DNA of 64,000 nucleotides. Source: a virus. Positions 56,021-56,362 of the stretch are shown here, piece after piece. The notes under the pieces are model-generated. The model did not search any database. It was not told the origin of the DNA and saw nothing but the letters and a program-made list of their open reading frames with translations. Every line of letters begins with the position of its first letter. Position 1 is the stretch's first letter. A program made the translations under genes and the position numbers. The stretch is taken from positions 51,841 through 115,840 of IMG/VR virus record IMGVR_UViG_3300041809_000571; one strand, 5' to 3'.

Positions 56021-56031
56021 CGTGGTATTAT
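56021..56031 (+). promoter_or_regulatory. extended -10 promoter CGTGGTATTAT
   Basis: Preceded by AATCCTCAAAC as at 45031. Confidence 0.45.
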
Positions 56032-56037
56032 GTAAGT

Positions 56038-56331
56038 GAAGGAAGAAAACGAACTACCGACCCCATACTTGTAGGGGTAAAATTGAGGCGGGGAGCCGGA
56101 CGATATTGTTACCCGGTCGGCCTCACAAGATTCCGGCCCGCAAGGGCCACCAGTTTGAGGGGGCGAAAGCCCCTACCATTTTACGCCCCGAAAGGGGCAC
56201 CATTTTGGAGAGACATGCGAAATAGGAAACCCAATCCGATGCAGTGGCAGCCTAAGCGGCATTTTAGCCGCCCAAGCTTCGGTGGGCTTCCGTTTGCGCC
56301 CTAAAAAGAAAGACAACGCAAACGCACTTTG
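56038..56331 (+). ncRNA. candidate ~300-nt structured non-coding RNA
   Basis: Promoter to terminator with no RBS or ATG ORF; GC-rich with hairpins GGGGCGAAAGCCCC, GCCCCGAAAGGGGC. Confidence 0.4.
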
Positions 56332-56362
56332 ACCCACCGATGAAAGTTCCGGTGGGTTTTTT
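56332..56362 (+). terminator. rho-independent terminator
   Basis: ACCCACCG-ATGAAAGTT-CGGTGGGT followed by TTTTTT. Confidence 0.65.

Follow-up and report, generated by a model that had tools for sequence, protein, structure and literature searches.

A candidate leader-peptide attenuator that precedes a tRNA island in a huge phage

Both the control and the purpose of the large tRNA arrays of phages are an open question. Codon-usage compensation, the replacement of degraded host tRNAs and the evasion of anticodon nucleases have been proposed as reasons for carrying them. The locus described here addresses this question through the element that stands in front of such an array. It lies in a stretch of 64,000 nt (positions 51,841 to 115,840 of IMG/VR virus record IMGVR_UViG_3300041809_000571), called the window throughout, which belongs to a huge phage and harbours two tRNA islands, at 28884-30397 and 56372-63517. 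Ahead of the second island, at 56021-56362, we found a promoter-leader-terminator unit, which we named unit C. What could such a unit do in front of 26 tRNA genes? Our analysis suggests that unit C is probably the cis-acting leader of this island, a leader-peptide transcription attenuator that would sense tRNA supply.

A sequence identical to the window was found on a metagenome contig of 364 kb. In addition, homologues of the upstream neighbour gene (55044-55748) were found at 49-87% identity, and the contigs that carry them share the same layout, with the neighbour gene, a gene-free unit and a tRNA island that opens with tRNA-His. Nine lineages of unit C were collected by DNA-pattern scans: the window itself, L022-25, L003, L004-11, L012-21/L111, L150, L146/147, L148 and L154. 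The features that carry the argument are the following.

56207-56210, + strand: Shine-Dalgarno (SD)-like GGAG, 4 nt ahead of the ATG
56215-56304, + strand: leader open reading frame (ORF), 29 codons plus stop, peptide MRNRKPNPMQWQPKRHFSRPSFGGLPFAP
56218-56265, + strand: sensor codons 2-17, all read by island tRNAs, with about one codon per tRNA species
56333-56362, + strand: intrinsic terminator, CCCACCG(A) at 56333-40 and CGGTGGG at 56350-56, with a U-tract (U6) at 56357-62
56372-56445, + strand: tRNA-His(GTG), called by ARAGORN and Rfam, the first of 26 tRNA genes up to 63517

The first-pass annotation, made from the letters of the window alone, had seen no plausible ORF in this unit, only a TTG-initiated, Arg-rich frame without a ribosome-binding site. 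This part did not hold, as the tail of that same frame starts with an ATG at 56215, is preceded by GGAG and forms a 29-codon ORF that is kept in nine lineages. A purine-rich motif (GGAG, GAGAG or GGTGGA) precedes the ATG in all lineages, and GGAG or GAGG is the usual ribosome-binding signal ahead of the other genes of the window. From the ATG the frame is open for 29-34 codons in 9/9 lineages. All indels within it are multiples of three, namely a CAG insertion and the hairpin-loop classes of 13, 16 and 19 nt, and synonymous differences (AAT/AAC, CCC/CCA, TTT/TTC, CCA/CCT/CCC and GCG/GCA) are found among the lineages. The distal part of the peptide (..GG.P.FAG) is moderately conserved, and searches of Pfam and NCBIfam with four leader-peptide variants gave no match at E<=10. 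As in attenuators, the promoter is separated from the first tRNA gene by a short ORF with an SD-like motif and a start codon, and this pattern of conservation indicates that the ORF is probably translated.

The codons of the leader correspond to the tRNA genes downstream of it. The island serves His, Arg, Asn, Lys, Phe, Met, Pro, Gln and Trp, and this amino-acid set is identical in all lineages. Codons 1-17 of the leader (MRNRKPNPMQWQPKRHF; M R N R K P N P M Q W Q P K R H F) are all decodable by island tRNAs under wobble rules (17/17), compared to a fraction of 0.34 in the long ORFs of the window (P ~3e-8). The same test gave P ~1e-8 in L004 and in L012. When the 64-kb window was scanned in six frames, no run longer than these 17 codons was found; the next was a low-complexity run of 12. 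Isoacceptors are sampled as well: CGA, AGG and CGG for Arg, with CGC at codon 19; AAA and AAG for Lys; and CCC, CCG and CCT for Pro, with CCA at codon 20. The Gln codon is CAG, and the island carries Gln-CTG.

All nine amino acids occur within codons 2-18 in 8/9 lineages, in positions that are not fixed. Depending on the lineage, the position of the single His codon is 16, 11, 13 or 17, and that of the Phe codon is 17/18 or 3. That these two codons shift position yet stay suggests selection on the codon set rather than on the peptide sequence. The AAA codon is replaced in L012 and L146, whose islands have no tRNA-Lys(TTT). A core of ~95 nt, the leader ORF, is 82-86% identical in DNA among lineages and, judged by eye, more conserved than the adjoining tRNA-His. 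A constraint that acts at the codon level would explain both this identity and the frozen synonymous sites.

The unit ends in a terminator directly upstream of the tRNA genes. The first-pass annotation had described a textbook intrinsic terminator, and indeed the hairpin and its U6 tract are present and conserved. The stem has 7 bp of GC-rich sequence and a predicted energy of -11.6 kcal/mol; a consensus scanner missed it because the 10-nt loop exceeds the limit of the tool. In the comparison of the nine lineages 90% of cells were paired, four pairs showed compensatory changes and the covariation was above that of 500/500 shuffles. The gap between the U-tract and tRNA-His is only 9 nt, which leaves no room for a separate tRNA-His promoter, and no further GGTATTAT promoter core was found within the second tRNA island. 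Thus no promoter lies between the terminator and the tRNA genes.

The stretch from the sensor codons to the terminator can pair in alternative ways. The elements involved are listed below.

56224-56239, + strand: region 1, AGGAAACCCAATCCGA, inside the sensor codons and complementary to region 2
56256-56271, + strand: hairpin H5, GCGGC ATTTTA GCCGC, inside the ORF, with a loop whose length varies only by multiples of 3
56279-56291, + strand: region 2, TCGGTGGG (56279-86) plus CTTCC, ORF codons 22-26
56291-56324, + strand: hairpin H7, CGTTTGCG / CGCAAACG, between regions 2 and 3, with the stop TAA (56302-04) in its loop
56333-40, + strand: region 3, CCCACCGA, the 5' arm of the terminator; region 4 is the 3' arm, CGGTGGG at 56350-56

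Region 2 is a near-copy of the terminator 3' arm and pairs with either region 1 or region 3. The predicted energies are -21.4 kcal/mol for the 1:2 duplex, -16.3 for the 2:3 duplex and, as given above, -11.6 for the 3:4 terminator hairpin, and 1:2 is part of the predicted minimum-energy fold without a ribosome. The 2:3 complementarity of 7-11 bp is found in 9/9 lineages, with 84% of cells paired compared to 33-51% in slid controls, and the resulting antiterminator is mutually exclusive with the terminator. For 1:2, 85% of cells were paired in the nine lineages and at most 55% in slid controls. The arms of H7, compared by eye, differ among lineages yet stay complementary (GUUUGCG/CGCAAAC, GUUCGC/GCGAAC, GUCGC/GCGAC and AUCGC/GCGAU), and in four leader families the equivalent hairpin holds the stop codon in its loop.

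We then masked the footprint of a ribosome in the predicted fold of unit C. With the A-site at codons 2-14 the antiterminator replaces the terminator in the predicted ensemble. The terminator is predicted again from codon 16 to the stop, except at codon 18, where both are about equal. In transcripts that end before region 4, which is the stage at which the choice between the folds falls, the antiterminator was possible for stalls at codons 2 to ~18 in 9/9 lineages and was abolished from codon 19-20 on, again in 9/9. This boundary, at codon 18-19, coincides with the end of the restricted codon set.

Taken together, these features suggest the following mechanism. A strong promoter would fire, and the 29-codon ORF would be translated while RNA polymerase proceeds. 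Codons 2-17 would serve as a checklist with about one codon per downstream tRNA (His, 4 Arg, Asn, 2 Lys, Phe, Met, 3 Pro, Gln(CAG) and Trp). When these tRNAs are ample, the ribosome would reach the distal ORF and cover region 2 (56279-91), 3:4 would form and transcription would halt 9 nt ahead of tRNA-His. When any of the polled tRNAs is scarce, the ribosome would stall in the sensor codons, over region 1, so that region 2 would pair with region 3; the 2:3 antiterminator would block the terminator and the polymerase would read into the tRNA array. Both the stalling and the read-through that it would cause are deduced from the sequence. Scarcity might arise from a mismatch with host codon usage, from host tRNA degradation in infection or from anticodon nucleases of host defence, and the outcome would be a demand-driven, self-limiting expression of phage tRNAs.

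The same design is found ahead of the other tRNA island of the window.

28560-28878, + strand: unit B, with -10 TATTAT at 28604-09, leader ORF at 28737-28829 and terminator GGCGGC/GCCGCC at 28855-72 followed by U6

Unit B adjoins an island for Tyr, Leu and Ser (Tyr, 7 Leu and 3 Ser), whose first gene, tRNA-Tyr, begins at 28884, 5 nt after the terminator. Its leader peptide is MKNLSSNSLSSLSYSSSLLSGLVLPDGWDG (opening MKNLSSNSLSSLSYSSSLLS.../MKNLSSNSLSSLSYSSSLLSGLVL...). Among codons 4-20, 16/17 specify Leu, Ser or Tyr, and the ORF contains all six Leu codons and five Ser codons, so that 9/9 anticodon species of the island are covered. This is the only run of at least 10 codons of this island in the window. 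The predicted antiterminator helix of unit B is lost once the A-site of the ribosome passes codon 18. The homologue of the ORF in L152 shows in-frame codon indels.

If leaders of this kind mirror the islands behind them, further examples should be found behind the promoter motif that they share. Viral contigs were scanned for this motif (GACTACCGNNGGTATTATAT), and the scan yielded further leader ORFs in related huge phages, each of which matches its own downstream island. Leaders for Ile, Thr and Gln(CAA) were found in L158/L163/L169, L160-162 and L167; the leader MLTITMPHTQTQTTI... (ACT ATC ACC ... ACA CAA ACG CAA ACT ACG ATT) precedes Ile-GAT x2, Thr-CGT, Thr-GGT, Thr-TGT and Gln-TTG x2. Here the Gln codon is CAA, in accordance with the Gln-TTG of the island. 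Two other leaders, ...HITEVDVIAAVAAGCEGD... and ...GDIEAVGIAEAAVVCEGGD... (L159 and L170), are rich in Val, Asp, Ala, Gly, Glu and Cys. They precede Val, Val, Gly, Ala, Gly, Gly, Ala and Asp tRNA genes at loci that end early, where the island is partly visible. The correspondence between leader codons and the tRNA genes behind them is thus replicated in unit B and in two island types of relatives. Together, the two leader types of the window and those of the relatives appear to partition the 20 amino acids among the islands.

Some further observations were made around the first island. In L152 (reverse strand 3790-5215) an insertion of ~1.4 kb, relative to window 28725-28737, splits the promoter and 5' untranslated region (UTR) of unit B from the leader ORF. 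Upstream of unit B lies another promoter-to-terminator unit, unit A (28190-28555). Its hairpins, CCGGGTCAC...CCGGTGG, are repeated, and it has a start-stop ATG-TAG at 28460-65 behind a strong SD (AGGAGG). Unit A harbours a sub-threshold match to wcaG RNA (E=0.12) and is missing from the corresponding position in the close relatives L151/L152. On the other side, at 30761-33202 (-), an 813-aa protein with matches to the shoulder and repeat domains of Major Vault Protein (MVP) (PF11978, 1.4e-21; PF17795, 1.5e-10) adjoins the first tRNA island. No link was found between this MVP homologue and the leader units.

The part of unit C upstream of the leader ORF contains the promoter and a structured 5' UTR.

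55993-56031, + strand: promoter, with an A-tract at 55993-99, a -35-like CTGCAT at 56002-07, an 18-nt spacer and an extended -10 TGGTATTAT at 56023-31
56060-56078, + strand: hairpin P1 of the predicted fold, CCCC at 56061-64 and GGGG at 56074-77
56085-56124, + strand: stem P2, with GAGGC...GCCTC outside, CCGG...CCGG inside and the loop end GTTACCC
56135-48 (GCAA), 56160-73 (GAAA) and 56185-98 (GAAA), + strand: three GNRA-capped 5-bp GC hairpins, each followed by ACCAKTTT

Transcription of unit C would start near 56038. The promoter position is kept in the 8 other lineages, and the -10 core GGTATTAT with its upstream A-tract recurs, for instance at 28602 ahead of the other tRNA island. The first-pass annotation had called this promoter recurrent; the promoter-like -10 is real, but the 22-mer quoted for it is not recurrent (1 match at <=3 mismatches). 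A hairpin at the P1 position occurs in every lineage, each time with a different sequence. In P2, 6/11 pairs retain pairing through changes on both sides (RNAalifold, 9 lineages), and the GTTACCC motif of its loop is also found in the 5' UTR of unit B. The GNRA-capped hairpins that had been reported are present, as three 5-bp GC stems with GNRA loops. Their number is 3 in the window and L022, 2 in L003 and 0 in L012/L146/L148/L150, which argues that they are not the core of the element. In L022 one stem shows a compensatory swap (GGCCC/GGGCC to GGGCC/GGCCC). These hairpins are a lineage-specific, dispensable tandem module and may act in pausing, in stabilisation or as boxB-like sites. Among lineages the length of the 5' UTR ranges from 93 to 243 nt. 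The 333-nt transcript of unit C as a whole has a predicted fold of -127 kcal/mol (z = -4.3), and 0/100 shuffles were as stable.

Several points weigh against an attenuator. The SD spacing at the leader of the window is short, with 4 nt. The match between codons and tRNAs is not perfect: the L022 leader has AAA, yet no tRNA-Lys(TTT) was found there; the L146 leader is without a Lys codon although its island has a tRNA-Lys; and the leaders contain a few off-set codons (MKN plus one Asn in unit B, and M-P-H in the Ile/Thr/Gln leader). The covariation of the 2:3 antiterminator was not significant (72/500 shuffles), and none was seen for 1:2 because its sequences are invariant, so that both pairings rest on conserved complementarity. 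When equilibrium masking with region 4 was applied to the relatives, a switch over a run of sensor codons was observed only in L154. A switch occurred at few codons in L022 and L148, at isolated codons at most in L004, L012, L150 and L146, and not at all in L003. The terminator is thus predicted in most relatives almost whatever the ribosome position, and a kinetic argument is needed, as for trp. Moreover, the antiterminator forms in truncated transcripts even without a ribosome. If the leader is not translated, termination would therefore depend on 1:2 being trapped kinetically, as in the trp leader. With one codon per tRNA, compared to the single-codon runs of classical attenuators, a weak response to mild starvation is expected. 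Finally, the attenuator model accounts neither for the conserved P2 nor for the GNRA hairpins.

Despite these points, the likeness to known attenuators is extensive. The proteobacterial leaders trpL, hisL, leuL, thrL, ilvL and pheL likewise consist of a promoter, a short ORF with SD and ATG, helices 1:2, 2:3 and 3:4 and a terminator before the first gene, and their regulatory codons overlap region 1 as predicted for unit C. Judged by its architecture in the sequence, unit C is a leader-peptide attenuator, with four of the five sequence-level features of this class; for the fifth, the pairing of region 1 with region 2, the complementarity is conserved but invariant, and the outcome of masking differs among lineages. 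Multivalent sensing is known from thr (Thr and Ile) and ilv (Leu, Val and Ile). Unlike the amino-acid attenuators, unit C would regulate tRNA genes rather than biosynthetic enzymes. Its checklist of about one codon per tRNA covers 9 amino acids with up to 16 anticodons. Unit C belongs to a phage, and the code is split among islands by several such leaders. The long structured 5' UTR and the stop codon in an extra hairpin loop between regions 2 and 3 are further differences. In E. coli, the pheM leader peptide of pheST senses charged tRNA and controls a component of the translation apparatus, Phe-tRNA synthetase. In this it resembles the role proposed for unit C, but pheM responds to one amino acid with a run of Phe codons, targets a synthetase and is chromosomal.

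Could the conserved ORF instead encode a small basic peptide that has its own function? It might bind the ribosome, RNA or tRNA, or it might act in Arg-rich antitermination on boxB-like hairpins. The terminator would then merely close this small gene, and the tRNAs would be expressed by constitutive read-through or from another promoter. The peptide may also bear some resemblance to ribosomal protein L34 and to proline-rich antimicrobial peptides. The conserved ORF with its SD and ATG, a composition rich in Arg, Lys and Pro with a conserved Trp, and the moderately conserved distal part would all fit, as would the 5-bp GC stems with GNRA loops, which we take to resemble lambda boxB. A functional peptide, on the other hand, would not explain why His and Phe shift position while being retained, why changes such as P to H and K to R stay inside the island set, or why synonymous sites are frozen far beyond what the peptide needs. 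Moreover, four leader peptides of unrelated sequence each reflect the tRNA genes behind them. The peptides have no Pfam or NCBIfam match, the GNRA hairpins are missing from 4 lineages, and the 9 nt ahead of tRNA-His are too short for a promoter. We therefore regard this explanation as unlikely.

A stable structured RNA of ~300 nt, as the first-pass annotation had proposed, would act in trans, and its ORF would be incidental. Its description of a discrete, structured, regulatory-looking RNA ahead of a tRNA island is borne out, also by the compensatory changes in P2, and the covariation analysis that it suggested found that the terminator and P2 covary across nine lineages. The stable fold (z = -4.3), the 6 compensatory pairs of P2, the discrete promoter and terminator and the MVP homologue in the window are all in line with a non-coding RNA. 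An incidental ORF, however, would not stay open with its ATG, SD and multiple-of-3 indels in 9 lineages, and its codons would not agree with the tRNA genes behind it at P ~1e-8. The coding signal is present, the most conserved part is the ORF and not the hairpins, and only P2 is conserved in a non-coding-like manner. For the more specific proposals of a scaffold RNA, a likeness to T4 species 1 and 2 RNAs or a vault-RNA partner we found no evidence. T4 species 1 and 2 RNAs are also small stable RNAs beside phage tRNA genes; they are co-transcribed, processed and ORF-less. Unlike them, unit C precedes its island, ends in its own terminator and carries a conserved ORF whose codons mirror the tRNA set. 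The MVP gene is found beside the other island, at a distance of 23 kb.

An Rfam scan, which had been proposed as a check, returned only tRNAs and chance-level matches, at gathering score for the whole window and at E<=10 for 55900-56600. At E<=10 in 55900-56600 and 28150-28900 there was a mascRNA match on the tRNA itself and the wcaG match in unit A (E=0.12), the rest being tRNAs. No family, vault RNA included, matched unit C at E<=10, and none of the stable RNA classes (vault RNA, 6S, RNase P, GOLLD/ROOL) was recognised. All this makes a trans-acting RNA very unlikely. A Northern blot for a ~300-nt transcript would not discriminate, as the terminated leader of an attenuator would also be ~300 nt long.

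The correspondence between codons and anticodons, and the alternative between antiterminator and terminator, would also fit a direct tRNA sensor, in which the anticodons of tRNAs pair with the codon string of a ribosome-free, multi-specifier RNA and stabilise the antiterminator. T-box riboswitches share the purpose proposed for unit C, as they sense tRNA status through a terminator/antiterminator switch upstream of translation-related genes. They differ in that they bind one uncharged tRNA directly and without translation, whereas unit C has a translated-looking ORF. Rfam gave no T-box match for the whole window or, at E<=10, for the region of unit C, and neither a Stem I platform with a specifier loop nor a T-box sequence was recognised; lone codon-anticodon triplets are too weak to bind without such a platform. 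In addition, the ATG, the SD and the multiple-of-3 indels extend past the sensor codons, and the stop lies in a hairpin loop in all families. A T-box-like RNA is therefore highly improbable.

That unit C is a tmRNA-like RNA, a structured RNA of ~330 nt whose +2 frame at 56229-56255 reads (UAG) ETQSDAVAA-stop and is followed by a hairpin, as in the internal short frame of tmRNA (SsrA) that ends ...AVAA-stop, is scarcely credible and was rejected: although the tag-like frame occurs in 8/9 lineages and GCC TAA to GCA TAG in L146 is silent in it, the tag stop is lost in L154 (TAA to CAA) through a change that is synonymous in the ATG frame (CCT to CCC), the other core substitutions would all alter the tag peptide, the exchanges P to H and K to R in L146/L148 are explained by staying within the amino-acid set of the island, the 5' and 3' ends are not complementary, and there is neither a tRNA-like domain nor a tmRNA call by ARAGORN nor a match to a tmRNA, alpha-, beta- or cyano-tmRNA model at E<=10. 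The tag look-alike most likely arises from the constraint on the codons and is a possible trap for annotation.

Relatives were also sought in other collections. The phage GenBank collection contained none, with matches limited to tRNA and HNH fragments; the neighbour protein (55044-55748) had no match in the viral contig set; and an exact 39-mer from the hairpin region had no match. A metagenome scan with the 15-mer TGGCAGCCTAAGCGG returned at least 120 matches, mostly by chance, and one further true locus, L111. A scan of genome contigs gave nothing but chance matches inside bacterial genes.

The tRNA islands themselves show several unusual features. Between tRNA-His and tRNA-Arg lies a structured spacer (56446-56529), in which a long helix, GGTGAGTGA...TCATTCACC, encloses a GC-rich core. 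No tRNA was called in this spacer, and L003 has a conserved counterpart at 2042-2125. In several lineages the leader is followed by a tRNA-His whose D-arm is atypical and which ARAGORN missed in L146 and L148. A conserved element of ~45 nt, GAGATTAAGYCGTRCCGTG...CAGAGTGTG, precedes this tRNA-His; the loci are L012 11178-11299, L146 7101-7215, L148 1496-1612 and L150 1268-1353. At 29824-29894 and 58939-59012 ARAGORN called tRNA-like genes with two-base "anticodons" (ga and tt), and similar calls were obtained in L004 and L012; they represent either degenerate tRNAs or tRNAs whose anticodon loop is unusual. L146 harbours a tRNA with the anticodon CTA (11140-11215), an amber suppressor labelled "Pyl" by ARAGORN, which may hint at stop-codon reassignment or suppression in the clade. 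HNH endonuclease ORFs are found in the tRNA islands, for instance at 56834-57253 (with DNA similarity to phage HNH genes) and at 60646-61200 (with Pfam HNH in L001); the islands are hotspots of mobile elements.

Outside the islands, the window encodes a T4 Rnl1-type RNA ligase, RlaP (RNA repair pathway nucleotidyltransferase) and a radical SAM protein, at 10031-11302, 49706-50644 and 51036-52619, respectively. The RNA and tRNA repair functions among them fit a phage that contends with tRNA damage. Unit C may also serve as a sensor of host anticodon nucleases, a role with which the RNA ligase and RlaP would be in line.

A search of the full-text literature, with incomplete coverage of subscription journals, found no description of leader-peptide or attenuation control upstream of tRNA genes, arrays or operons, phages included, which does not exclude a prior description. 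If unit C works as proposed, attenuation, a textbook mechanism for amino-acid operons, would extend to tRNA genes and to viruses. A leader that enumerates an array and gates its transcription would be direct sequence-level evidence for on-demand expression under tRNA shortage. It would also provide a simple search rule, as an upstream mini-ORF whose codons mirror the downstream tRNAs could be used to annotate similar elements in other phages, and such leaders might be developed into compact multi-input tRNA sensors for synthetic biology.

For the clade of huge soil and peat phages to which these leaders belong, we lean, on balance, towards modular tRNA-supply sensing, in which a separate leader peptide, with roughly a single codon polled for each tRNA species, would gate each island: Tyr/Leu/Ser; His/Arg/Asn/Lys/Phe/Met/Pro/Gln-CAG/Trp; Ile/Thr/Gln-CAA; and Val/Gly/Ala/Asp and others. 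Such a system would be both a counter-defence sensor and a homeostat. If this is true, the loss of any single tRNA, whether through a host anticodon nuclease or through phage-induced host shut-off, would switch on the very island that replaces it.

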